A DNA stretch of 45,750 nucleotides from Candidatus Hodarchaeaceae archaeon (GTDB lineage Archaea; Hadarchaeota; Hadarchaeia; Hadarchaeales; Hadarchaeaceae), in NCBI GenBank assembly GCA_030018135.1, contig JASEGJ010000008.1, forward strand, positions 1 to 45,750, in the 5' to 3' direction. A program made the translations under genes and the position numbers. The notes under the pieces are model-generated. The model made no database searches and was not told the DNA's origin. It saw only the letters and a program-made list of their open reading frames with translations. How positions within the stretch are numbered: the stretch's first letter is position 1; every line of letters starts with the position of its first letter. This document shows, piece by piece, positions 8,377-43,433 of this stretch.

Positions 8377-8640
8377 CGTATTGCCTAAGACGTTGCCCCT
8401 AGCTTGCCATACGGAATATGCCAATGAAAGGGTTTAGTTGGGTGTCTTAGTTAAGACATCGATTCAAGCGGCCGCGTCTTAGGTAAAACACCTATTCACG
8501 AACTCGCCAATCGTGAGGACATCGAAAGGTGGGCTTGTCTGAGGTAAGACAAGATGTCTTAGTTAAGACATCAGCTCTAACAGTCGCGGCTTAGGTAGGA
8601 CATGTACGGGGCCATTTTTACCGATGTCTTAGGTAAGACA
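8377..8640. repeat. Cluster of 16-bp palindromes, consensus TGTCTTA-(GG/GT)-TAAGACA
   Basis: Copies at 8443-8458, 8475-8490, 8536-8551, 8555-8570, 8587-8602 and 8625-8640, plus a degenerate reversed copy at 8377-8392. Confidence 0.9.
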
Positions 8641-32022: not shown

Positions 32023-34476
32023 TTATTCCTTCTTCCTTCGCTTCAACGTCAAGTATGCCGCTATCGCTATTATCACTATTACGACGATCGCTGCGATCAC
32101 TGCCCACGGTATCTCGGCTATCTCGGCGGGCGGAGCCTCTTCCGCGGTCAACCTGAACTCCAATTCATCTGATGCCCCAGTCCCAGTTACTTTTGCCTTT
32201 AGGTCGTCCCTCGTGATGGCATCCACCTTGGGCGTCGTTATCGTTATTTTGACCTCGGCGCTCTGCCCGGGTGATATTGTTACCTCCCCGCGCTCAAGCT
32301 CGACCGGCCAACCCTTTGTGCTTGTGACGGCGATCCTATACGTATTTGTCTCGGTGCCCTCGTTCGTGATCGTCAGGGTGAAGACCCCTTTCTCCCCGCC
32401 TTTCACCGTCGGTCCCTTTCCTGGATCCCATGATCCCTTTACCGAAACCGCATACGGCGAGTACCAAACCTCGTGATCCACGAGGTAAACGCGGGGGTCC
32501 CATGGCCAGCGGTTATACTTTTCGTTGTCGGTCACTTGGTCGTCCTGCACCCTGATGCCTGCCCCCAACGCCTCGAGAATCGGGTTAGTGTTGAAGGGTC
32601 TGGTGTAGCCACCATAATCGGCCTGCTCGCCGAGGAACAGGCCCCCGCCCGCGAGTACCCAGTCGCGGATGGCCGTGATCTCGGCACTTGTAAGGGATCG
32701 CTCCGGGGTGACGAACATGAGCACGCTGTACGGCGCGAGGCGCTCCGAGGTTATCCCATCGGTGTAGGTGTGGACCGTGTAGCCCTGACCTTCCAAGAAA
32801 TTGAGCCACAACTCCATGCGATCCTTGTTGTGGAAGGCCGTGGAGGGGGTCCAGTAGAAGAGCACGCTGTGCTGCGCCGCGTTCTCGTACCGCACCAACC
32901 AGCCCACCATGCGCGAGCCAATCTCCCTGAGCCTCAACGCCTCGACGCTGAAGTGGTCCGTCGGCGCGCTCCGGAAGCTGGCTCCGCCGCCGTGGACTAT
33001 GACCCTGCCTCCTCCAACCTCTGCAGCCGCGGCTATGATCGGGAACTCGCCCCTGCCGAACGGCACCGGGTAGGGCTCGCGGTAGGATTCATCGAGGGTG
33101 CAAGCGGTTTCCGTCCCGATGATGATCGGCTGCGCGGGGGATTCGACGGTGAGCGAGGGCGTGCTGAAGACATAGTAGTATTCGTCCTTTCTGTATATCG
33201 GGTATGGGGGTTCTGCCGTCGGGAAGTACGGTGCCGTCGATAGGAAGACCGAGTCCTCGACGCCTGTGCCACTTGCCGTGATCTTGACCACGTTTCTGAC
33301 CTTCTTCGTTATGGCCGGGTCGACGGTGATCCTGACCGCTACCCTGTACACCTCGCCCGCTGCGAGCGAGAGCGTGGATGGCGAGACCTCTATCCCCCAC
33401 CCCAAGTTATCGGTCGCGGTTACGGTGTAGTTGTCGTCGAGGGTGCCCGTATTGGCGACGGCAACGATCGTTACGATGTCCTTCCCGGGTTCTTGAGTGA
33501 CCAACGTGGGTCTGAAGTTGTTGTCCACCCGAGGGGATTGCTTCGGCTCGGTTTCGAGAAACGTTACCGCTACCGTCCTCAACGCGGGCGGGGCGAGCGT
33601 GCAAATGCTGTACAACCCGATCTCCGTCTTTCCGATGGCAGCCTGGTAGGCAGCCCCTATCTCGGTCGTGGTGTCGACATCGAGGACTGGCTGGTATGCG
33701 CCGTACCAATAATTGGTCGTATCGCTCATCTGGTCCATCTGGAACCAGAGCCCGAAGCCGAGGGCGGAGAGTATCTTGTTCTGCACCTTGTAGTAGTTGT
33801 GTCCGCCGTAGTCGGAGGCATCCATGACGAGCAGGCCCTTGCCCTTCTCCTCGACGAAGGCCTTGATGGCGTCAACACTTGCTTCAGGCAGGAAGTCCGG
33901 ATCTCCTCCCGTCGCGGCAGTGCCGAGCTGGAACTGAGGTACGACAAGGATGTCGTACGGCGCGAGAAGGCTCGCGGTGATGGGCTCGGTGCTGTCGCCC
34001 GTAATCGTATATCCCAAAGCTTCGAGCGCGGCTACGAGCTGCGCGCATCGCTCGGTGTTGTTGTAGACCCCGTAGCCCTCGTACCAGAGCACCTTGGCCG
34101 CGCCGGGTTTCATCCACCGGAATGCCTTGTCGAGCAGGATATCGAGGTGGGGTAGTGGGTTCGCTCGGCCCGCCCTCGCATCGTTCCACCTGCCGTCCCG
34201 AGCGGTGGCTGCGAGGCCCGCGGCGACGACCGCCCCGGCGCCGATCCTCTGGGCCGCCATTATGGGCGGGCGATCGCCGGCTACGTAGAATTTCCACGGT
34301 TTATCTCCAGTTTGGTTTATGTTAAAGGCGGTTTCCTTTCCGCGGACGATGACGATGACCTCCGGATTTTCTGCGACTGTAAAGCTCGAAGTTATGAATG
34401 TCAACGTCGCTGTGATCATTAGGATAGATATCAAAATGCCGCTCCTTGTGATCGCTTTACGATTTTTCGTTTTCAT
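32023..34476 (-). CDS. Secreted, C-terminally anchored surface protein with two DUF4350/GATase-like domains and two Ig-like domains
   Basis: Signal peptide; duplicated ITxxxLAPYxxL...DYGG modules; NTGTLDDNYTVT and NEGTETNTYRI Ig-like units; C-terminal TM plus KRRKKE. Confidence 0.8.
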   Translation of the reverse strand: MKTKNRKAITRSGILISILMITATLTFITSSFTVAENPEVIVIVRGKETAFNINQTGDKPWKFYVAGDRPPIMAAQRIGAGAVVAAGLAATARDGRWNDARAGRANPLPHLDILLDKAFRWMKPGAAKVLWYEGYGVYNNTERCAQLVAALEALGYTITGDSTEPITASLLAPYDILVVPQFQLGTAATGGDPDFLPEASVDAIKAFVEEKGKGLLVMDASDYGGHNYYKVQNKILSALGFGLWFQMDQMSDTTNYWYGAYQPVLDVDTTTEIGAAYQAAIGKTEIGLYSICTLAPPALRTVAVTFLETEPKQSPRVDNNFRPTLVTQEPGKDIVTIVAVANTGTLDDNYTVTATDNLGWGIEVSPSTLSLAAGEVYRVAVRITVDPAITKKVRNVVKITASGTGVEDSVFLSTAPYFPTAEPPYPIYRKDEYYYVFSTPSLTVESPAQPIIIGTETACTLDESYREPYPVPFGRGEFPIIAAAAEVGGGRVIVHGGGASFRSAPTDHFSVEALRLREIGSRMVGWLVRYENAAQHSVLFYWTPSTAFHNKDRMELWLNFLEGQGYTVHTYTDGITSERLAPYSVLMFVTPERSLTSAEITAIRDWVLAGGGLFLGEQADYGGYTRPFNTNPILEALGAGIRVQDDQVTDNEKYNRWPWDPRVYLVDHEVWYSPYAVSVKGSWDPGKGPTVKGGEKGVFTLTITNEGTETNTYRIAVTSTKGWPVELERGEVTISPGQSAEVKITITTPKVDAITRDDLKAKVTGTGASDELEFRLTAEEAPPAEIAEIPWAVIAAIVVIVIIAIAAYLTLKRRKKE

Positions 34477-35446
34477 AATCTACCTCCCAAAGAAGATGAG
34501 GGCCGACTTTTATAAATGTTTTGGAGGGAAAAAAATATTTTTTGCCCGCCAAAGACCACGAGAAAATCAAAAGCATTGCGGCGAGCATTGGTGCCGCTGT
34601 TAAAGGATTTAGGCCCATGCTGGCTGCGCGGGTTTTCGAGGTTTCGAATGTAAGTTTGTAATGGGGCTCCTCCAGCCAGACGCCCTCGAGGTGGTTTCTC
34701 GCCCTTATCTCCACCTCGACCTCGCCACCCTTGGGCTTTACGAAGAGGAAGATCGATTCGTACTGTTTGTTCCAATCTATGGAATTGACCCCGAACGACA
34801 TGAACCCGTAGGGGGTGTTTTCAACCAACACCCACCGATGAAGATGCCCGTGGAACCACACATCGACGACGACATCGCCCTCGAACGCCGTCTGCAACTT
34901 GGGCCAGACGTTCCATTGATAGTAGGGCTGGTGGGAGAAGATGAAGATCGGCTTGTCCCTGTTGGTATGGAGCTCCGCCCACAGCCAGTCGAACTGCTCG
35001 TCGCCCATGACCCCGCCGCCGTAGTGGACGTAATTCTCCCAGCCCTTTTCGTCCGATATCAGCACGAACCTAATTCCAGCCACATCGATGCCCCTATATG
35101 ACAATGGAAGCACGGCCTCCCCCGTGTCGCGGTCAAAGTCGTGGTTGCCCAAAACGTAGTACCATCCCCTGACCTTCAGGTTTTCCATCATCCCTGCGAT
35201 CGGTGGAAAACTGCGGTGGCTGTCGTTCGCGAGGTCCCCCAGGCAGATGGCGTAGTCCGCTATTTGAAGTCTGTTCACGTCCTCGATGGCAGTGCGTAGG
35301 TACCTTTCGTCTCCCGGGAAAACGTGAGGGTCGGTAAACACCCACCAGACCTGCTCGCCGTCGCCCCGGGTGACGATGAAGCCCGTGGCCGCGAACGCGC
35401 ACGCCGCGACGACCGCAGCCGCAACCATGATAATTTTCGAACCCAT
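34457..35446 (-). CDS. Secreted calcineurin-like metallophosphoesterase
   Basis: DPH, GD, GNHD, SH and GHLH motifs; N-terminal signal/TM and a hydrophobic C-terminus. Confidence 0.88.
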   Translation of the reverse strand: MGSKIIMVAAAVVAACAFAATGFIVTRGDGEQVWWVFTDPHVFPGDERYLRTAIEDVNRLQIADYAICLGDLANDSHRSFPPIAGMMENLKVRGWYYVLGNHDFDRDTGEAVLPLSYRGIDVAGIRFVLISDEKGWENYVHYGGGVMGDEQFDWLWAELHTNRDKPIFIFSHQPYYQWNVWPKLQTAFEGDVVVDVWFHGHLHRWVLVENTPYGFMSFGVNSIDWNKQYESIFLFVKPKGGEVEVEIRARNHLEGVWLEEPHYKLTFETSKTRAASMGLNPLTAAPMLAAMLLIFSWSLAGKKYFFPSKTFIKVGPHLLWEVDYENEKS

Positions 35447-35469
35447 GTTTTCACCTCACGAACTCACGA

Positions 35470-36558
35470 TCACTCAAGCCAGCTCGAGTAGACGCTCCCC
35501 CAGTCCCTTTGGAATATCTTCATCAAATCCCCGACCACCTCGGGGGATCTGACCATCACGCCGACATCCCTGCCCCCGTCGGTTATGTACCGGATGTCGA
35601 TGTTGGCGCTCCCGACGTAGGCCCACTCGTTGTCGACCACGATGACCTTGGGGTGGGCCGAGTATGGATGTCTGATGACCGTCACGCCCACCCCCTCACG
35701 TCCCGCGAGCTCCTTGAGGGCGTACTCCCATTTGAGGGACTCCTTGTCCACCATCACCTCCACCCTGACGCCTCGGTCGAGCGCGCTCACCAAGGCCTCC
35801 CTGAGCTTGGGGGGCATGCCGTTGTATATGTACATGTAGATGTAGACATTTTTTTCCGCGCGATCTATCAGCGCGGCGAACGCGTCGAGGGTGCGGGTGA
35901 CCTCCACGGGCACCTCCGGACCGTTGGCCACCGGGATCACCCAATCCGCCCCCCAATATTCACTGCCCCTCGGCTCCCCGCCCGCCGCGACCCAGCCGCT
36001 CTCGAAGATATATGTGTAGGTCCCAGCCATCTCCTCGCCGTAAAGCGTAAGATTCACCTCGCGGTTGAAGGTCAAGGCGTAGTAGCTCCAGTTGGTGCTC
36101 CCGACGCTCACCACCTTCCCATCCACTATCATGTACTTCGCGTGCGTCTGTCTGGGGAATGGCAGCGCGGTTATCCCCTCGTGCTGGTCGAGTTCCTTCA
36201 CTATGTCTCGAGCGTAGTTTCGCCCGTCCACGAGGATCCTGATCTCAACGCCCCGATCGGCGGCATCCTTGAGGGCACTGTAGACATCGCCCAGGGGGCC
36301 TTGGGGAGGATTGAGGTAGTAGGCTTCGATATCTATGGTATATTTTGCCTCTCGAATTAGCTTGAGCCAAGTATCTGCGATGTCGTCTATCTTGGGATCG
36401 TTCAGCTCCGGGGGCGCGGTCTCGGTCACCTCGATGCTCGGCGCGGCCGGCGGCGTCGAGCTGAGCGAGCGGTAGCCGGCGTAGCCGACGGTTATCGCGA
36501 CGGCAACGAGCGCCGCGATGACCGGAACAACCCTTGCAGATTTGCCCTTCAAGTCCAC
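35470..36558 (-). CDS. Membrane-anchored phospholipase D-superfamily enzyme (two HKD motifs)
   Basis: HAKYMIVDGK...GSTN and HPKVIVVDNE...GSAN; N-terminal TM. Confidence 0.92.
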   Translation of the reverse strand: MDLKGKSARVVPVIAALVAVAITVGYAGYRSLSSTPPAAPSIEVTETAPPELNDPKIDDIADTWLKLIREAKYTIDIEAYYLNPPQGPLGDVYSALKDAADRGVEIRILVDGRNYARDIVKELDQHEGITALPFPRQTHAKYMIVDGKVVSVGSTNWSYYALTFNREVNLTLYGEEMAGTYTYIFESGWVAAGGEPRGSEYWGADWVIPVANGPEVPVEVTRTLDAFAALIDRAEKNVYIYMYIYNGMPPKLREALVSALDRGVRVEVMVDKESLKWEYALKELAGREGVGVTVIRHPYSAHPKVIVVDNEWAYVGSANIDIRYITDGGRDVGVMVRSPEVVGDLMKIFQRDWGSVYSSWLE

Positions 36559-37493
36559 CCCTCGGCCGCCTGTTTCATGCTATCCTCTGCCATCACAGGG
36601 GGTCTGCGCGTCGCCTTATTAATTTTTGGGCTGGTGGCTGGTTGGGCTCGCTTCCTCAAGACGTATGTAATTACGACCAAGGCGAAGGCCATCGCCGCGA
36701 TGGCTACGGCAGCCCAAGCGGTTCTCGGTCCCTCCTCGGTCGATACCCCGGCCTTCACCAATCCGGCATCTATCAACGCCGTATACCAGATGTCGGCCGT
36801 CAACCTTACGGCGACGTTGAGCCTGTTCTCGGTTATCCCCCTTAAAACATCGTTCCAAAGTACCCCCTGCACCAGCCAATAGCTCACCTTATCGCTTTCA
36901 TAGCCCGCGTATCCAAAGCTATCTAGGGCGACCTCGACCGTCGCCTGAAAGACGTTCTCGAGTAACCTAGGTTCGTAATCGTAAATCGTTATCTCGTGTA
37001 GCATCCCATCCACCCCGTCCTCGAATGCAACGTGCCTCCCCCCAGGGTTGTAGTCCGAGGTCGCATGGAGCGGCATCGTGATGTCCGTGGCGTAATGGGT
37101 TATCGCTCCCGCGAGCAGAGCGGCGCGCTCCCAGTCCCTAGCCCTCAGGCTCTCGACGAACATGAGGTAGTTATCGGCCAATGCCCAGGGGAGCATACCC
37201 AGTTCCGGATTCACCCCATCGGGGGATAGGTCTACATCGTAGAAGTGCCTGTATCGCTCGCTCGGGTCCTCGCCCCGCCATTTTATGTCGGGATAGATGG
37301 AGTACTCGACGACGAGGTCGCCGAACGCGTTGAAGAAGGGCTCTTCGGGGAGCAGCCCCATCGCCCGCTCGGCGACGAATTTGTGGGCCCTCAGGCCCCA
37401 ACCCCGCACCTCCGCGACTGAGGCGGAACTCAAAATGAGAACCACGAGGACGACGAAGGAAGCTCGGAAGATTAAACGACCGTGAGCCATCAT
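36549..37493 (-). CDS. Secreted S1/P1 nuclease / Zn-dependent phospholipase C family protein
   Basis: Signal peptide then WGLRAH; PD, HFYD, HYATDITMPLH and HVAFE zinc ligands; C-terminal TM plus RKR. Confidence 0.88.
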   Translation of the reverse strand: MMAHGRLIFRASFVVLVVLILSSASVAEVRGWGLRAHKFVAERAMGLLPEEPFFNAFGDLVVEYSIYPDIKWRGEDPSERYRHFYDVDLSPDGVNPELGMLPWALADNYLMFVESLRARDWERAALLAGAITHYATDITMPLHATSDYNPGGRHVAFEDGVDGMLHEITIYDYEPRLLENVFQATVEVALDSFGYAGYESDKVSYWLVQGVLWNDVLRGITENRLNVAVRLTADIWYTALIDAGLVKAGVSTEEGPRTAWAAVAIAAMAFALVVITYVLRKRAQPATSPKINKATRRPPVMAEDSMKQAAEGWT

Positions 37494-37612
37494 TTGCCCC
37501 CTAAATTAATTGCGGACGTGCTTTTAAAGCTGCGCTGCATTAACTATTCAGCCGTTTGGTGGAGGCTAGTTCGGGGCGTGGCCTAGGCCGCCTATGTGGT
37601 GGGCGCCTTCGC

Positions 37613-37946
37613 TGTCACAGCTGTGACGTCGGGGCAGCGCCGCGGATGTCACACCTGTGACACGAGGCGCGCGATTTTGCCCGCTTATAAACGACCTCCA
37701 CCCAAAGCCCTCGCGGGCTATGCCGAACTCGTATCTGATCGTCTACGACATAAGGGAGCTCGACTGCGGGACGAGACAGCGGGTGAGCCGGCGCCTCAGA
37801 AAAATCCGCGCGGTGAGGCTTCAGCAATCGGTGTGGGAGTCGAGCAGACTGGCGGAGCTGAAGAACCTAGCCGACTCGATCGGTCTGGCCGGCGGGAAGG
37901 CGTTGGTGTTGGAGAAGCGAACAGTCCACTTGTCACACCTGTGACA
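37613..37946. repeat. Three 16-bp palindromes TGTCACA-NN-TGTGACA
   Basis: TGTCACAGCTGTGACG at 37613-37628; TGTCACACCTGTGACA at 37647-37662 and 37931-37946 (identical). Confidence 0.88.
37720..37944 (+). CDS. Orphan Cas2-like (ferredoxin-fold Cas2/VapD/PaaX-type) small protein, 74 aa
   Basis: YLIVYDI...RQRVSRRLRKIRAVRLQQSVWE matches the Cas2 pattern; TATA-like CTTATAAA at 37684-37691. Confidence 0.72.
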   Translation: MPNSYLIVYDIRELDCGTRQRVSRRLRKIRAVRLQQSVWESSRLAELKNLADSIGLAGGKALVLEKRTVHLSHL

Positions 37947-38030
37947 AACATGTGCTCGCACCGGAGAAATTTTCAGCGCGCTCCTAAGCCCCAGGCGGGG
38001 GACTGCGGAATTTCGGACTTAATGCGCGAG

Positions 38031-39422
38031 TTATTTCCTCTTGAAGTAGAGGATCGCCGCTAAAGCCGCAATGGCGACGACCACCCCGGCGGTCGCTATT
38101 GGGATCCCCGCCGGCTCGCTGGGTGTAGCCTTTTGGATGACCAGCTCATCGAAGACATCTCCATTTGCGTCGATCGCCCTCATGTGGAGCGTCCCGTTCT
38201 CGTAGATGTCCAGCAGGACGAAGTGATACCTGGGCTCGGGACCGAATGCGGTGAACCACTTGGGGCGGTAGCCGGTGTACAGCGGCGCTCCCCAGCCGCC
38301 GCTCACCACGTAGGTGACGCCATTCTCGAGCGACACGACCTCGCCGGGCGCCCTGGTCCAGTCGAGCGGGTGGGAGCGCTCGTAGGTGTGGAAGTGACTC
38401 ATCAACACCAGGTCGACGCGGTACCTGTCGAACAGAAAAGCCAAATTGTCTATCATGTACTTGACCTCCGACCTGGCGGAGACCATGTCCCTGTGGAAGA
38501 CCACTATCTTCCAGAGGTAGTCCTTGGACGCCTCCAGCTCGCCCCCCAGCCAGTCGACCTGCTCCTTCCAAGCTTCTGAGTTGGGGTCCAAAATCTCGCT
38601 GTCCAGCACTATTATCCGCAGGTCGGGCCCCCAGCTCAGCGCGTACCAGCGCTCGTTGCCCGGCAGGTCGAACAGCGCGTAGTAGTTCATGGCGTGGGCG
38701 CTCGGGTCGTAGTCCGTGGGCTGCGGATAGATTATCTCGTGGTTCCCTATCGCCGGGACGATCGGGATCATCAGGCCCTCGGGGGTGACCCAGTATTGGT
38801 ACATCGCCGAAAACCAGCCGTCCCAGGTGTCCGGCGCCACTTGGTCGTCACCGTTCCAGAGGAAATCCCCGCTGAAGACGGCAAACGATGGGCTGCGCTG
38901 CGCCATGAGCTCCGAGGTATTGTTCCTAGACACCGGCCAATCGGGGTGGGGATGGGTGGGCCTCGTGTCCGACCTCGAGTCGCCCCCGACGACGAGGCTG
39001 AAGCTCGTCCTGCTCGCCGGGGCGGTGCGGAAGGCCCGCTCCTCGCTCCATCCGTAGCTGGAATGCCCGGCGATGAAGTAGTAGACGGTGTCCGGCTTCA
39101 AGCCCGTGAGCTCGACGTGGTGGATGTAGCCCTCGAACTTCGCGGTGGTTATCCCCTCGCTGCCCGAGGCGCGATAGCGGTACGCCTCCGGGTCTCCGCC
39201 CCTCGACTGCGTGTCGTAGCGCACCTCGCCCGCATAGTTGCCGGTCGTGCGCCAGCTGACGTTGATGCTGTGGGCGGTGTCGTCGCTTGCCCAGGTGAGG
39301 TAGACGTAGGCCGGCGGGTCCTGAGCCAAGGCGAATGCCGGGGAAACCGCGGCGCTCGATAGCATCAGCGCGATCGCCGCCAGCGGGATGATCGCCGCGA
39401 TTTTTCCCCCTATATCACCCAT
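38031..39422 (-). CDS. Secreted purple acid phosphatase-like metallophosphoesterase with FN3 domain
   Basis: Signal peptide; HHVELTGLKPDTVYYF; GDSR, SGD, GNHE, VFH and SHFHTYERS motifs; C-terminal TM plus KRK. Confidence 0.92.
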   Translation of the reverse strand: MGDIGGKIAAIIPLAAIALMLSSAAVSPAFALAQDPPAYVYLTWASDDTAHSINVSWRTTGNYAGEVRYDTQSRGGDPEAYRYRASGSEGITTAKFEGYIHHVELTGLKPDTVYYFIAGHSSYGWSEERAFRTAPASRTSFSLVVGGDSRSDTRPTHPHPDWPVSRNNTSELMAQRSPSFAVFSGDFLWNGDDQVAPDTWDGWFSAMYQYWVTPEGLMIPIVPAIGNHEIIYPQPTDYDPSAHAMNYYALFDLPGNERWYALSWGPDLRIIVLDSEILDPNSEAWKEQVDWLGGELEASKDYLWKIVVFHRDMVSARSEVKYMIDNLAFLFDRYRVDLVLMSHFHTYERSHPLDWTRAPGEVVSLENGVTYVVSGGWGAPLYTGYRPKWFTAFGPEPRYHFVLLDIYENGTLHMRAIDANGDVFDELVIQKATPSEPAGIPIATAGVVVAIAALAAILYFKRK

Positions 39423-39503
39423 GACATCAACCTGCCACCGAATTTAGGGTCCTCCTATTTAAATGAATTCCTCTCGCCTCTCGCCAGATTCCTATGGGTC
39501 TTT

Positions 39504-39911
39504 CTACTGTGGCAAATTCTCCCTCACCCAGTTCAGAAATCGCCCTGCGGCCTTCACCGATTCTTCCGCTTCCCCCCTAAATATCTCTCTGCTCGTACTC
39601 CGCTAGGGTCTTGCTTCCAACGACCCTCCTGAACTGACTCGCCGCTCTTTCCCGCCCTCCGGCTCCGCTATCCCTTTTTCTTTAAGAAGGTGTGCCGCGT
39701 CCCCGTGCTTTTCGCCTGCATGCTTCCGCCGCAGGTAAAATGCGGTTAGTGCATCGAGAGCACCTATCGCGGCGTGAGCCGCGCATCCGGCGGCCGCGTT
39801 CACATTGCCCTTGAAAAGCGAGTACTTCGCGGCGTCTAGGAACTCCTCCGATTTCTTGAGGAAAACCTTGTAGGAACCCTTCAGAACGGGTTTGGTCCTT
39901 ATCGTCATCAC
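39504..39911 (-). pseudogene. HEPN-domain toxin with two frameshifts
   Basis: KSEEFLDAA...AAHAAIGALDAL...H; continues in shifted frames as FRRVVGSKTLAEYE and EAEESVKAAGRFLNWVRENLPQ* (stop 39504-39506). Confidence 0.78.
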
Positions 39912-40496
39912 CTTTTCCCCAACCTTCCGACGATGAATTCCCCACGAGCTACAATTTCCTTCACCGCTGGAGTTTCCCGCCTCTCCTCGAACTCTTTAGG
40001 CGTTAAGATATATTCAGAAATCACGTTGCCAAATCTCCCCATCACCTCCTTCTCCAGTCTCTTTTTCGCGCCTTCTTTGTCCCTGGTGAGGATGAAAACA
40101 TCGATGTCAGAGGTGGGCTCCTCCTCCCCCTTCGCGATGCTCCCGAAGATAGCTAGCGAGATTACTCCCCCGTCCGATCGGAAAGCTTCCTTCAGCAGGC
40201 GTTTCAACTCCAGCTTGGCCCCTTCTTCGGCTTGGAAGAGCGATCCGAGTTGCTCCACGATGTAATGCCCGGAATTTAGGGTGTGGATATTGGCCTTTCC
40301 CACCGTCCTCACATTGACCACGCCGTAATTGACATATTTCGGCATCGCCCTATTGACTGTTTTCTGTCCGACTTCGGATACCATCGCCAGTTCGTTCTCG
40401 TTGAACTCCTTGGTTGGATACTTAAGCAGGGTACGCAGGATTTTAATGTCAGATTTTTTGCCCCATGACTTCCTCGAGGTAATTAGTAAAACGCAT
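39908..40496 (-). pseudogene. wHTH plus minimal nucleotidyltransferase (MNT) antitoxin, frameshifted near its 5' end
   Basis: IFGSIAKGEEEPTSDIDVFI motif. ATG 40496 after a GGTGA SD gives MRFTNYLEEVMG, which must shift frame near 40460 to join KKSDIKILR. Confidence 0.78.
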
Positions 40497-40505
40497 TTTC
40501 TCACC

Positions 40506-40519
40506 AGTCATTTTTGACT
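40506..40519. promoter_or_regulatory. Palindrome upstream of MNT-HEPN (possible autoregulatory operator)
   Basis: AGTCA-TTTT-TGACT directly upstream of the SD. Confidence 0.4.
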
Positions 40520-40554
40520 AATAAGCTTTGCTGTGAACTATGAAAATATTTTTG

Positions 40555-40602
40555 GAAAAGAAAACAAATAAAAAGCAAGGGGAAATATTGCGTTTTTCCC
40601 CT
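40555..40602 (-). terminator. Terminator of the large surface-protein gene
   Basis: AGGGGAAA-N9-TTTCCCCT hairpin at the stop codon, followed by long T-tracts on the minus strand. Confidence 0.7.
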
Positions 40603-43433
40603 CACTTCTTTCGGAAGATTGCGATCGCAGCCAAGATCAGCGCAACTATCACGAGGATAATTGCGTAGGTGCCCCACGCCGTCACGGTGCGAGTTACCTC
40701 GATGCTCTTCGGCGCCGAGACGTTGCCGACATCGTCCTCGGCGGTCACTATGATGGTGTTGGTGCCCTCCACCAAGGCTATTGAGAGGCTGAAGTTGCCA
40801 TCCGCATCCGTCTTGCCGGTCCAACTTCCGGCCGGCGCTACGACCGTCCACTTCGCCTCCTCGCTGACCTTGCATACTATGGCTATCGATGCCTGGTCCG
40901 TGATGGTCTTGTCAGCTGGCGAGATGATGCTGATCGTCGGCACCGTGCTGTCGACCGTCACCGTGCCGTAGAGCCGCTTTGGACCCTCGTTGCCGGCCCT
41001 GTCCGTCGCTGACACCTCGATCCTGCTCGTGCCCTCGGGGAGCGTTACCTTGAGGCTGAAGTTCCCCAGCTCGTCGGCAGTTGTCTCCTCCGTCCTCACG
41101 ACCGTGGTGTTCTGCATCACGTAGATCTTTATCTTGGCCCTCGCCTCAGCGGTGCCCGCGACTGTCACGCTCGCCACCTTCGTCCGCTCGGGTATAGCCA
41201 CCGCTGGCGCGCTCGGCAGGGCTGGTGGTGTGGTGTCTACCTCGAACCTGAAGTTCTCCACCGTCAGCGCGTTGAGGTTGTCGCCAGCTGAAACGTTGAT
41301 CCTGTACCAGTTGTCCGCCAGCGCGGCGGGGGTGTTCTCGAATATGCCGGTGGCGACATCCCAGACGTTGGAGTTCTCGAGCGGCGCTACGACGCTGCCG
41401 TTGTCGTACAGGATTTTTATGGTCACGTTGTCGGGGAAATTGACGCCCAGTCCCTTGTTCTCGGCGTAGCCTGGGTCGAGCATCTTGACGACGATCTTCG
41501 GCTTGTTGTCGTTGACCGCCATGTTCTCCACGAACGCCTTGCCTGCTATGGAGACCACCTCCACGGTCGGGGACTTGGTGTCGAGGAAAATCCTGTTCTC
41601 GACCGCCTCGCCCACCCAGCCGACGAAGTCCTCCACCCAGACCTTGACCGTGTTGTTGCCCTCGCTCAGCGTTATGGGTATGCTGAAGGTGTAGTAGGGC
41701 GAAACGCCCTTTCCGACGGTCTTCCTGACGGGGATACCGTTGACCTCGACGACGGCCGTGAGCGTGTCAGGGGTGTATGCGTTGTCGTTGTCCTCGCACC
41801 TCCCGGTGACGAGCCAGGATGCTTGGTTATCCTTCTCGGGCAGGTTGGCGAGCCCAGAGAACAACAGGTCCTGCGGCTTCAACGGCGGCGTGTTGTCGAC
41901 GTAGAATCTGCTGCCGGAGCCAGCGGTGGTCCACCTGGTCAAAGGACCTGTGTTGCCAGCCCTGTCCACGAGCGTGTTCTCCACCACCACGATGTTCGTC
42001 ACCTTGCGCTCCCATTCCGGCTTGACGACGAAGCTTCCGAGCCAGTCCAGGTTGTCCGTCGTCGTCATCGTGAGGTACTCGACTATGTTGTCGGTGCTGA
42101 CGACTGTTATGGCGACGCTGTTCTCCGACATTCCGCTAACTACCTCATACCAGCTCGTCGAGACCTTGACGCGTACCGTGGTGCCCGCCTTGAGCTTTGG
42201 ATAATAATACACATCGTTGGAGTAAATGCGAAAGATCGTCGGCCACTTGTAGTCTACTATGGTGTCGTAGCTCTTGTCCGCTCTGGCGCCCGTGGTATCC
42301 CAAGTGCTGACCGCCCATGTGACGGTCACGTAGTCGTCGGGCTTTACTGGACCGCCAGGCGTTCCGAAGTGCCCCACGTCCACCGCGTAGGGGAAGATCA
42401 GGCTGGCGCCCGAAGCTATCATCCGCGCGGTGTTGTCGGTCGACCAGGTGTCGGTGCCATCGAACGTCCACCCGACCGGCTGGTCCTCCGCCGCGGCGGG
42501 CGTCACCAGCTCCATCCGCTTGCCGCTCGCCCTCTTCACGTCGGTGTTCTCGGGCAGCGTCACGGACGCAACAGTTAGGAGCTTAACCTTCGTCCCGCTC
42601 GGGATTATCACGAGGTTGTCATTTTCGGTCCCTGGATCGACGGTGCTGATCAACTGCACGGTCACGCCCGCCCCGAGGGTAGCCTCGACTGCCCCTCCCC
42701 TGAGCACTGGCACACTTGCGACCGTCCTCACCACGTTGTCCGCCAGCTTCACCCTCCTGTCGTTCTTCAGCGTGATGTTGTCGCCCGCTGCTAGGTCGTT
42801 CTCGGTGATGCGGTCGCTGGTGACTTCCAGCAGGGTGTCCTCGGGCAGCTTCACCACGTTGCCACCCACCCGGACGACTAGGGTATCCTGGAGCAGCCTC
42901 AAGGTGTTCTCAGCGGTCAAAGTCACCGTAGTGTCCTTGGCCGGCGCAACGTTGTCGCCGACCGGGATGCCGTCCCTGGTGTTAACGGGCGCCGTCACCT
43001 CCACCAGAGCGTTGTCCCTCAACAGCGCGTTCTCGCCGAGCGCCGGGACCCAAACCCAGGTGTTGTTCTCCCTGATGACATCGGTGTTCTCGTAAAGCGT
43101 CACGTTCTCCGCGGTCGCGAGCTTCACAATGGTGCCCGCAGGCAGGATGACATCGTTGTCGTCGACGCAATTCAAGAGGTTGTCCTTGGGCACCTTCGCC
43201 ACCGACGCCAGCCCGCTGAAGCCGCTCGGCAAGGTTATCTTGACCTTGTTTATTGAGTCGCCCGAGGTGTTCGTCACCTTGAGCGTGTAGACCTTCGAGA
43301 TGTCCTGCTTGACGAACTTAGGCGTGATTTCGACGCTGGGTACATGAGTAGCGACAGCGGTCGTCGATATCGAAAGTATGGTAGTGATCATCAACATAGC
43401 TACGATCGCTGGTAGCAATTTCCTACTTTCCAT
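40602..43433 (-). CDS. Large secreted Ig-like-domain surface (S-layer-like) glycoprotein
   Basis: Signal peptide; V/T/D/N-rich; VDNTPP, DTKSP, VDTTPP and EGTNTI Ig-like (Big-type) units; many N-x-S/T sequons; C-terminal TM plus RKK. Confidence 0.85.
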   Translation of the reverse strand: MESRKLLPAIVAMLMITTILSISTTAVATHVPSVEITPKFVKQDISKVYTLKVTNTSGDSINKVKITLPSGFSGLASVAKVPKDNLLNCVDDNDVILPAGTIVKLATAENVTLYENTDVIRENNTWVWVPALGENALLRDNALVEVTAPVNTRDGIPVGDNVAPAKDTTVTLTAENTLRLLQDTLVVRVGGNVVKLPEDTLLEVTSDRITENDLAAGDNITLKNDRRVKLADNVVRTVASVPVLRGGAVEATLGAGVTVQLISTVDPGTENDNLVIIPSGTKVKLLTVASVTLPENTDVKRASGKRMELVTPAAAEDQPVGWTFDGTDTWSTDNTARMIASGASLIFPYAVDVGHFGTPGGPVKPDDYVTVTWAVSTWDTTGARADKSYDTIVDYKWPTIFRIYSNDVYYYPKLKAGTTVRVKVSTSWYEVVSGMSENSVAITVVSTDNIVEYLTMTTTDNLDWLGSFVVKPEWERKVTNIVVVENTLVDRAGNTGPLTRWTTAGSGSRFYVDNTPPLKPQDLLFSGLANLPEKDNQASWLVTGRCEDNDNAYTPDTLTAVVEVNGIPVRKTVGKGVSPYYTFSIPITLSEGNNTVKVWVEDFVGWVGEAVENRIFLDTKSPTVEVVSIAGKAFVENMAVNDNKPKIVVKMLDPGYAENKGLGVNFPDNVTIKILYDNGSVVAPLENSNVWDVATGIFENTPAALADNWYRINVSAGDNLNALTVENFRFEVDTTPPALPSAPAVAIPERTKVASVTVAGTAEARAKIKIYVMQNTTVVRTEETTADELGNFSLKVTLPEGTSRIEVSATDRAGNEGPKRLYGTVTVDSTVPTISIISPADKTITDQASIAIVCKVSEEAKWTVVAPAGSWTGKTDADGNFSLSIALVEGTNTIIVTAEDDVGNVSAPKSIEVTRTVTAWGTYAIILVIVALILAAIAIFRKK

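Follow-up and report, generated by a model that had tools for sequence, protein, structure and literature searches.

The window analysed here is a 45,750-nucleotide stretch of forward strand from a Candidatus Hodarchaeaceae archaeon of the phylum Hadarchaeota, a hot-spring inhabitant (contig JASEGJ010000008.1, positions 1 to 45,750, assembly GCA_030018135.1). Between 37613 and 37946 it holds a short gene related to Cas2, a core protein of CRISPR systems, enclosed by palindromes of one type. The host genome, G000, is a 1.1-Mb metagenome-assembled genome (MAG) of 45 contigs and is 93% complete; the window's contig is C44, other C-numbers without a genome label are further contigs of G000, and G001 upwards are genomes of relatives within the phylum. 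The Cas2-like open reading frame (ORF) occupies 37720–37944 on the plus strand, stop codon included, and encodes a 74-residue protein, P0001. Every neighbouring gene from 32023 to 43433 lies on the minus strand, leaving this ORF as the sole plus-strand gene, and the genes that adjoin it encode hydrolases (Metallophos, PLD, Zn-dependent phospholipase C and a purple-acid-phosphatase-like gene).

The palindromes are of a 7-2-7 form, in which a 7-bp arm, a 2-bp core and the inverted 7-bp arm make up 16 bp, and are called pal1, pal2 and pal3 from left to right. The exact 16-mer TGTCACACCTGTGACA is present at 37647–37662 (pal2) and 37931–37946 (pal3) in identical orientation, the starts being 284 bp apart, and the variant TGTCACAGCTGTGACG lies at 37613–37628 (pal1), 34 bp upstream of the first exact site. 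Pal1, an 18-bp spacer and pal2 form a 50-bp doublet that ends 22 bp upstream of the TATA box, while pal3 overlaps the final codons of the ORF and supplies its TGA stop (37942–37944). An earlier, sequence-only reading had described two identical sites enclosing promoter and ORF, a third variant upstream and a stop codon donated by the downstream site, and all three points were confirmed, as were the gene's own TATA box and its solitary orientation within the hydrolase cluster. The span that it gave, 37613 to 37947, begins correctly and ends one base too high. Scanning the window with up to three mismatches returned three places (six strand matches, 0.09 expected; none of 100 shuffles gave six), and the pattern TGTCACNNNNGTGACA had three window matches against 0.05 expected.

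Promoter and short leader fill 37663–37719 on the plus strand, with an archaeal TATA box (TTATAAA, 37685–37691) 28 bp ahead of the ATG. Because the TATA box and leader (37667–37718) match a lineage-wide promoter consensus, which also stands ahead of unrelated genes in relatives and has 22 short matches in G002 to that genome's homologous promoter stretch, the promoter of the ORF is credible. The consensus itself (TATA, then ACCTCCACCCAAAGCC and, just before the start codon, CGGG) recurs at many loci in G002, G007, G015 and G021. No repeat array was detected in the window (no rows from Tandem Repeats Finder, no Rfam matches), and the sole cas1 match in G000 is a fragment on a separate contig (C40:15831–16019, Cas1 C-terminal part in a 116-aa frame). 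None of the Cas2-like loci has cas1, an array or an effector. The proposal, made from the letters, of a Cas2-like system outside CRISPR with no array or neighbouring cas gene is supported by these results.

Profile comparisons place P0001 in the Cas2 superfamily as a minimal, divergent member. It matches Pfam CRISPR_Cas2 (PF09827) at E = 1.4e-4 (22.4 bits; the cut-off of 23.8 is not reached) and TIGR01573 at E = 2.1e-3 (18.3 bits; the cut-off of 24.5 is not reached), and nine Cas2 models of PADLOC match it as well. A profile of 30 relatives searched against the PDB brought Cas2 chains to the top (E = 6e-4 to 3e-3); the best four, and 10 of the 13 matches listed, are Cas2 or what we take to be Cas2, and the three weaker ones are unrelated proteins. 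PF09827 is matched at E ≤ 0.01 by 25 of 30 family members, among which weak Pfam matches to PaaX_M (4/30) and ChrB_N (3/30) also occur. The Cas2 pattern first noticed is hence consistent in Pfam, TIGRFAM, PADLOC and PDB profile matches, though weak. The library matches cover only the N-terminal half, residues 5–53 of P0001. In an alignment of 30 family members D10 is invariant (30/30), as is G59, and R19, R24, Q35, S37, V38 and W39 are nearly so; D10 aligns with the Asp of the YDV motif of Cas2 chains, at the end of strand 1. A Y1_Tnp match was not obtained for P0001 in Pfam, and inspection of the alignment by eye shows no conserved HUH (histidine–hydrophobic residue–histidine) motif or tyrosine.

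The family is small. Among 1.84 billion representative proteins it comprises 97 clusters at E ≤ 1e-3, nearly all of 37–109 aa, and two source names point to Hadesarchaea/Hadarchaeum. A Cas2-like match is present in 31 of the 66 Hadarchaeota genomes sampled; five of the 31 are N-terminal domains of 388–479-aa proteins without palindromes. Three such proteins (L018, L021 and L028, in G049, G041 and G037) are 442–468 aa long, come from one family of the phylum, start with the Cas2-like domain (IFYDIKPE...) and have no flanking palindromes. Viral contigs, plasmids and PHROGs contained no relative of P0001. In a search of sequencing runs, only two DNA runs, both from one study, contained 7% of the words, and no RNA run was among those listed. 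The gene is under purifying selection, with a ratio of nonsynonymous to synonymous substitution rates (dN/dS) of 0.09–0.20 against its orthologues.

The association of gene and palindrome extends well beyond the window. Same-family palindromes were counted from −300 to +400 of the gene at 34 homologue loci and in 2000 random 900-bp windows. At least two cognate 7-2-7 palindromes were found at 22 of the 34 loci, on both sides in 15, against 33 of the 2000 random windows; palindromes thus flank homologues too, a check that had been asked for from the sequence alone. About ten arm types are seen (TGTCACA, TGACATA, TGA(C/T)ACA, TGTCAAA, TGACAAA, TGTCTCA, TGTCTTA, TGTCGTA, TGTCCTA and TGTCCAA), and their positions recur: one palindrome begins at −25 relative to the start codon, a doublet precedes the TATA box at about −73 and −107, the start codon of one clade is itself covered by a palindrome, and a further palindrome ends 2–4 bp beyond the stop codon, which it supplies in at least six clades. 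That the arrangement arose by chance or in assembly hardly deserves consideration: G000 is a 45-contig MAG and repeats may be mis-assembled, but the shuffle controls oppose chance, and the pattern is seen again at the 22 of 34 loci, which come from independent genomes, and at 15 metagenome loci described below, with related contigs in public runs.

Further, protein and palindrome vary together. The distance between two proteins and that between their palindrome arms are correlated (Mantel r = 0.65; 0 of 10000 permutations as high), although relatedness inflates such tests, and all nine protein pairs that are at least 70% identical have the same arm. In five two-paralogue genomes (G000, G002, G003, G011 and G012) the palindromes around either gene are of a type peculiar to it. 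G000 has 11 sites of the window-type motif TGTCACAnnTGTGACA and G011 has 9; no other genome has the window's protein type, and the remaining 59 have 0–2 sites. The reversed-pattern control gave 0 sites, which answers the genome scan that the sequence-only reading had called for, and G000 has about 17 sites when up to two mismatches are allowed. Two other palindrome types are likewise enriched together with the matching gene, with exceptions such as G038. The paralogue in G000 (C11:21111–21401) is 40% identical to P0001 and is flanked by TGTCT(T/G)A-NN-TAAGACA, a sister type with about 28 sites in that genome. Within the window's clade 14–16 of the 16 palindrome positions are invariant (14 for pal1, over four copies, 16 for pal2 and 15 for pal3), and the spacers between palindromes have diverged. 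The palindromes as well as the protein are under purifying selection. On the simplest reading, the palindrome would be what the encoded protein recognises. The identity of the residue that follows R19 tends to go with the DNA type (residue 20 is Q for TGTCA, L for TGA and R or K for TGTC[CT]); a simple recognition code based on it was rejected, there being a tendency only.

Two other palindromes of G000 were observed alongside these. Single sites of a third family, TGATACA-NN-TGTATCA, are found where the sequence is AT-rich and promoter-like (C9:2981, C9:14881, C11:31449, C16:879, C16:4000, C22:54926, C24:2503, C33:22314 and C43:49287); this type flanks Cas2-like genes in G002, G016, G003 and G068, and no cognate gene was found in G000. 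CCGCACT-NN-AGTGCGG with conserved flanks stands at four contig ends (C22:30, C26:64, C39:471 and C40:63991) and is another repeat that breaks the assembly, such as an insertion sequence (IS) end or a CRISPR repeat.

The gene–palindrome units are small mobile modules that have been gained and lost in relatives. The window copy and a second copy on C10 (15871–16206) are 99.1% identical over 336 bp, the limits of which are exactly pal1 and pal3, and a copy in G011 shares the same limits at 80% identity. In G003 and G013 about 40 bp separate the two genes on either side of the window copy, against 537 bp in G000; the additional intergenic DNA on the left (37494–37612), in which no terminal inverted repeat (TIR) of IS66 type was recognised, and on the right (37947–38030), which has no detectable likeness to the C10 copy, is missing from those relatives too. 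Likewise, at least four relatives have just 70–130 bp between the flanks of the C10 copy, where G000 has 1080 bp, and the orthologous site of G035 lacks the module of G012 (67 bp instead of 478 bp). In a hot-spring metagenome with a relative of about 90% identity, a contig passes from 37628 directly to 38023 by way of 73 other letters, pal1 being kept and the gene absent; window parts without coverage in this comparison are uninformative, apart from this single gene-less joint. A related metagenome contig shares 37528–37628 of the window, and a loose end similar to the CCGCACT contig ends adjoins 37528 there. Empty-site or gene-less alleles, which the sequence-only reading had proposed to look for, therefore exist both at orthologous sites of relatives and in a metagenome. 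The idea of a cassette fits because the homology of the second copy ends at the outer palindromes and gene-less derivatives are joined at the palindrome.

Gain and loss of the same kind are seen in a second subfamily, whose conserved position is next to Ldh_2, with a lineage-specific gene, X, on the other side. Gene X (about 105 aa; C11:23202–23582 in G000) lies directly upstream of the subfamily-2 Cas2-like gene in many relatives and has no Pfam or PADLOC match. The place between X and Ldh_2 holds a full module, one or two palindromes without gene (G019, G025, G027 and G062), a gene remnant (G004) or nothing (G015 and G017). In a single genus the place is occupied by a TGTCCTA-type module in G011 and by TGTCTTA-type solo sites in G019 and G025.

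Gene-less composite units are scattered in intergenic DNA; both of their ends are palindromes, and they are 84–100% identical, spacers included. They comprise 105-bp and 66-bp non-coding units (99–100% identical, palindrome-bounded), and some palindrome clusters lie between convergent genes or within coding sequence. One cluster of five sister-type sites (TGTCTTA-NN-TAAGACA), of the type that flanks the C11 paralogue, is in the window itself at 8443–8640, between DUF359 and ribosomal protein S24e, where the spacer is about 100–320 bp longer than in seven relatives; its 105-bp unit is 99% identical to C41:13824–13927. Decayed copies are found at C23:2674–2724 and also in G010, G011:C29, G032 and G068. 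CRISPR-like mini-arrays were considered for these clusters and rejected: the spacers are 3–90 bp long, irregular and conserved between loci.

Units whose edges are bounded by palindromes might be taken for cassettes moved by a separate site-specific recombinase of integron or resolvase kind, with the palindromes as crossover sites and the Cas2-like gene as cargo. In both G000 and G011 the sites on the two flanks match exactly, share one orientation and have CC as their core, and a preprint (10.1101/2022.02.06.479319) has reportedly described integrons in archaea. This explanation is nonetheless highly improbable. No Resolvase family gene (PF00239) was found in the 93%-complete G000, and the 34 loci examined have no recombinase gene of any kind linked to them. 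The palindrome type goes with the clade of the neighbouring Cas2-like gene, a pattern not expected from a host recombinase common to all. Since the core dinucleotides differ between sites around a single gene in several clades, the 2 bp behave as a spacer rather than as a crossover core, and the serine-recombinase crossover site suggested earlier is not supported on either count.

An RNase toxin of Cas2/VapD type, or a decoy against host CRISPR adaptation, carried on a selfish element and with the palindromes forming RNA hairpins in its own transcript, is also quite improbable. Cas2 is homologous to the VapD toxin, as stated in the available part of PMC3150331. The 3' palindrome, and the start-codon palindrome of one clade, would fall in the mRNA, and a protein with matches limited to the N-terminal half, lacking the C-terminal part of Cas2, would suit such a role. 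However, no antitoxin partner accompanies it. Gene X was tried as an antitoxin-like partner and rejected; it is near-universal (39 of 45 genomes of the family; 43 of all 66 genomes, against 31 with the Cas2-like gene). Further, the upstream doublet lies outside the transcript, the hairpin is weak (6-bp stem, −3.7 kcal/mol with DNA parameters), only a Cas1 fragment is present in G000, and dispersed gene-less sites and co-variation are left unaccounted for.

In relatives the window's clade is carried by a 497-bp non-autonomous transposon of IS66 type. Searching metagenome contigs for P0001 yielded 15 loci, which are 95–99% identical copies of one 497-bp element in unrelated flanks, some of them frameshifted. 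The element has imperfect 14-bp TIRs and the order TIR, arm, pal1, pal2, promoter, ORF, pal3, pal4, TIR, and it contains no transposase gene of its own. In its eight full-length copies the 8-bp target-site duplication (TSD) is exact in five, matches at 7 of 8 positions in two and is unclear in one. The G011 copy (G011:C39) is bounded by the same TIRs, and in G005 the same TIR pair encloses an IS66-family DDE (Asp-Asp-Glu) transposase gene, split by IS110. The available part of PMC12898284 describes an ISBst12-group IS66 member with a single ORF, whose TIRs are 14 bp long and whose direct repeat is 8 bp. The doublets without a gene at C22 (98% identical to the window's) and C6 (90%) correspond to the 497-bp element minus everything between two palindromes, joined at the palindrome; for the C22 doublet a 7/8 TSD was read by eye. 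To the TIR family of this element also belong 119-bp miniature inverted-repeat transposable elements (MITEs). Two MITEs of G000 (C22:31129–31247 and C43:30410–30528) have the TIRs GTAYGTATTAAGCT and exact 8-bp duplications, GAAAATTC and CAGTTTTC. An IS66 DDE transposase in G000 lies in two pieces at C29:1290–2070. Among the 34 homologue loci two carry an IS66-type TIR and the other 32 do not, and the C10 copy has no recognisable TIR or TSD. Since the TIRs are confined to the window's clade and the window copy itself has no recognisable one, the gene–palindrome unit is the general feature and the IS66-type shell the vehicle of one clade.

A further element with the same IS66-type TIRs, L135 (G005:C87:6058–6532), is 475 bp long and carries a different 75–98-aa ORF (YMIYDF...). 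Its 14-bp palindrome GGCGAACGTTCGCC lies over the start codon and again right after the stop, an architecture as in the Cas2-like element. The kinship of this ORF with Cas2 is doubtful, hhalign giving a probability of 3% and Pfam no match.

These transposon copies bring forward an account, possible though tentative, in which the protein is a passenger regulator only. An autoregulated, sequence-specific DNA-binding protein of Cas2 fold, acting as transcription factor or modulator of the transposition of the element, would use the palindromes as operators, and all movement would come from an IS66-type transposase in trans together with host recombination or slippage between direct repeats. The sites are indeed fixed relative to the promoter: the doublet stands 22 bp upstream of the TATA box in the window's clade, other clades have a site between TATA box and start codon or over the start codon, and in one case the TATA box of a housekeeping gene has a sister-type site 20 bp upstream. 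The regulators PaaX and ChrB contain related Cas2-like domains, to which the weak Pfam matches here point, a DDE transposase alone suffices for copies with TIRs and TSDs, and IS66 DDE genes exist in G000. On the other hand, inter-site spacers are 84–100% conserved between unrelated loci, which points to copying rather than to independent evolution of operators. The site clusters are insertions missing from the orthologous promoters of relatives, some are between convergent genes or in coding sequence, and the window copy has palindrome edges and no TIR. Binding alone also leaves the invariant Asp at the catalytic position of Cas2 unexplained.

The explanation that we favour, which could equally prove right or wrong, is that Hadarchaeota possess a family of modules in which a promoter and a gene for a 69–96-aa protein of Cas2 fold stand between clade-specific 7-2-7 palindromes, as a functional analogue of the bacterial repetitive extragenic palindromic (REP) sequences and their REP-associated tyrosine transposases (RAYT), including REP doublets forming hairpins (REPIN). 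The protein would dimerise like Cas2, and a basic helix after strand 1, on which the near-invariant R19 and R24 are predicted to sit, would read the two arms of the palindrome. Binding on both sides of its own gene would give autoregulation and mark the borders of the module. Binding, possibly with Asp10-dependent nicking, would promote recombination at the sites, and such recombination would insert, delete and copy palindrome-bounded segments. A Cas2-family protein, and not an HUH transposase, would then be the partner of the palindromes. Judged by the sequence evidence, the protein probably binds the palindromes and may cut at them.

Several points weigh against this explanation. Fold, dimer and DNA contacts are predicted from weak Cas2 matches, with P0001 under the Pfam cut-off, and we know of no Cas2 protein that is a sequence-specific DNA binder. 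A 74-aa protein without an obvious nucleophile is unlikely as a recombinase. Deletions and duplications between 16-bp direct repeats require no dedicated enzyme, and an IS66-type transposase accounts for the copies with TIRs and TSDs without involvement of the protein. The window copy has no TIR within three mismatches and no visible TSD. Fewer than two palindromes were counted at 12 of the 34 homologue loci at the chosen stringency, the module is single-copy in G002 and G012, and 10–30 sites per genome are far below typical REP counts. Finally, residue 20 is R in G011 and Q in G000 for the same palindrome. Even so, the REP/RAYT-like explanation is placed above that of the passenger regulator. 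A bolder version of it is doubtful: the Cas2-family protein itself would be the factor with sequence specificity, an Asp-dependent nuclease or recombination initiator that spreads and removes its cognate palindromes without Cas1, making up with them a free-living selfish system on transposon-like DNA. It would then be a plausible relative of the stock that gave CRISPR its Cas2 and repeats, in parallel to casposons for Cas1.

The likeness to REP/RAYT systems lies in a gene flanked by cognate short palindromes that are dispersed extragenically as singlets, doublets and clusters, in an own palindrome for each gene clade, and in a gene that is often single-copy in a conserved spot, here that of subfamily 2 between gene X and Ldh_2. 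Intragenic copies occur as well, here on C1 and C27; intragenic REPs are described in the available part of PMC3733652. In G000 the window-type palindrome lies inside coding sequence at C1:11355–11370 and C27:293–308, where it encodes VTPVT, and both host genes are paralogues of the window's purple-acid-phosphatase-like gene (38031–39422), the C27 paralogue being split into two ORFs. Unlike in REP/RAYT, the partner is a 69–96-aa protein of the Cas2 superfamily without a Y1_Tnp match, the palindromes, perfect 16-mers of 7-2-7 form, bear neither a GTAG nor a CGTC tag, copies number tens per genome and not hundreds, and the system resides in an archaeon. Y1_Tnp has a single match in G000, a 54-aa fragment at C10:13220–13369.

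Like CRISPR Cas2, the protein is associated with short palindromic repeats, and the two are alike in sequence across strand 1, helix 1 and strands 2/3, a stretch that takes in the Asp closing strand 1 and an SV(W/F)E motif. It differs in its shorter length, the missing C-terminal segment, scores under the Pfam and TIGRFAM cut-offs and the lack of cas1, array and effector; the repeats differ from those of CRISPR in being 16 bp long, irregularly spaced and co-varying with the protein. MITEs and mobile insertion cassettes of the IS66 family (ISBst12 group) resemble the element in imperfect 14-bp TIRs, 8-bp TSDs and the lack of an own transposase, whereas here a single passenger gene comes with cognate, binding-site-like palindromes in both arms.

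PaaX, ChrB and VapD belong to the same superfamily, as far as the weak Pfam matches to PaaX_M and ChrB_N indicate. In PaaX and ChrB, both of them regulators, DNA is bound by separate winged-helix domains, whereas the Cas2-like protein is a bare single domain. The DNA-binding domains of papillomavirus E2 and of EBNA1 are ferredoxin-like dimers that read palindromic sites with one helix per subunit; they offer a precedent, by analogy only, for a dimer of Cas2 fold on a 7-2-7 site. VapD, according to the available part of PMC3150331, has an antitoxin partner. Elsewhere in the window, on the minus strand at 39606–40504, a nucleotidyltransferase-domain gene (39911–40504, Pfam NTP_transf_2) overlaps a 102-aa ORF (39606–39911) without a Pfam match; the two are possibly a toxin–antitoxin-like pair.

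The literature covered, supplementary files excluded, describes no Cas2 relative coupled to dispersed palindromes that belong to it, and no such repeats in Hadarchaeota. The parts are of known kinds, namely the Cas2 superfamily, MITE-like IS66 derivatives and REP-like repeats, and the combination is new. Cas2 is the least understood of the core CRISPR proteins, and its origin, in VapD-like toxins, has been a matter of guesswork. Here a compact Cas2 relative has evolved locked to a short palindromic repeat, outside CRISPR and on mobile DNA. If the protein binds the sites, it would represent a new class of sequence-specific DNA-binding proteins, with about ten natural protein/site pairs that are usable for deriving a recognition code; oligonucleotides of TGTCACAnnTGTGACA, for the window protein, and TGTCTTAnnTAAGACA, for the C11 paralogue, would be the sites of two such pairs. 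Both binding and cutting are questions that a 74-residue protein and 16-bp oligonucleotides make testable. If the protein also cuts or recombines its sites, the modules would amount to a mobile element of a new kind, archaea would have their first REP/RAYT-like system, and the question of how Cas2 and repeats were brought together would be directly concerned.

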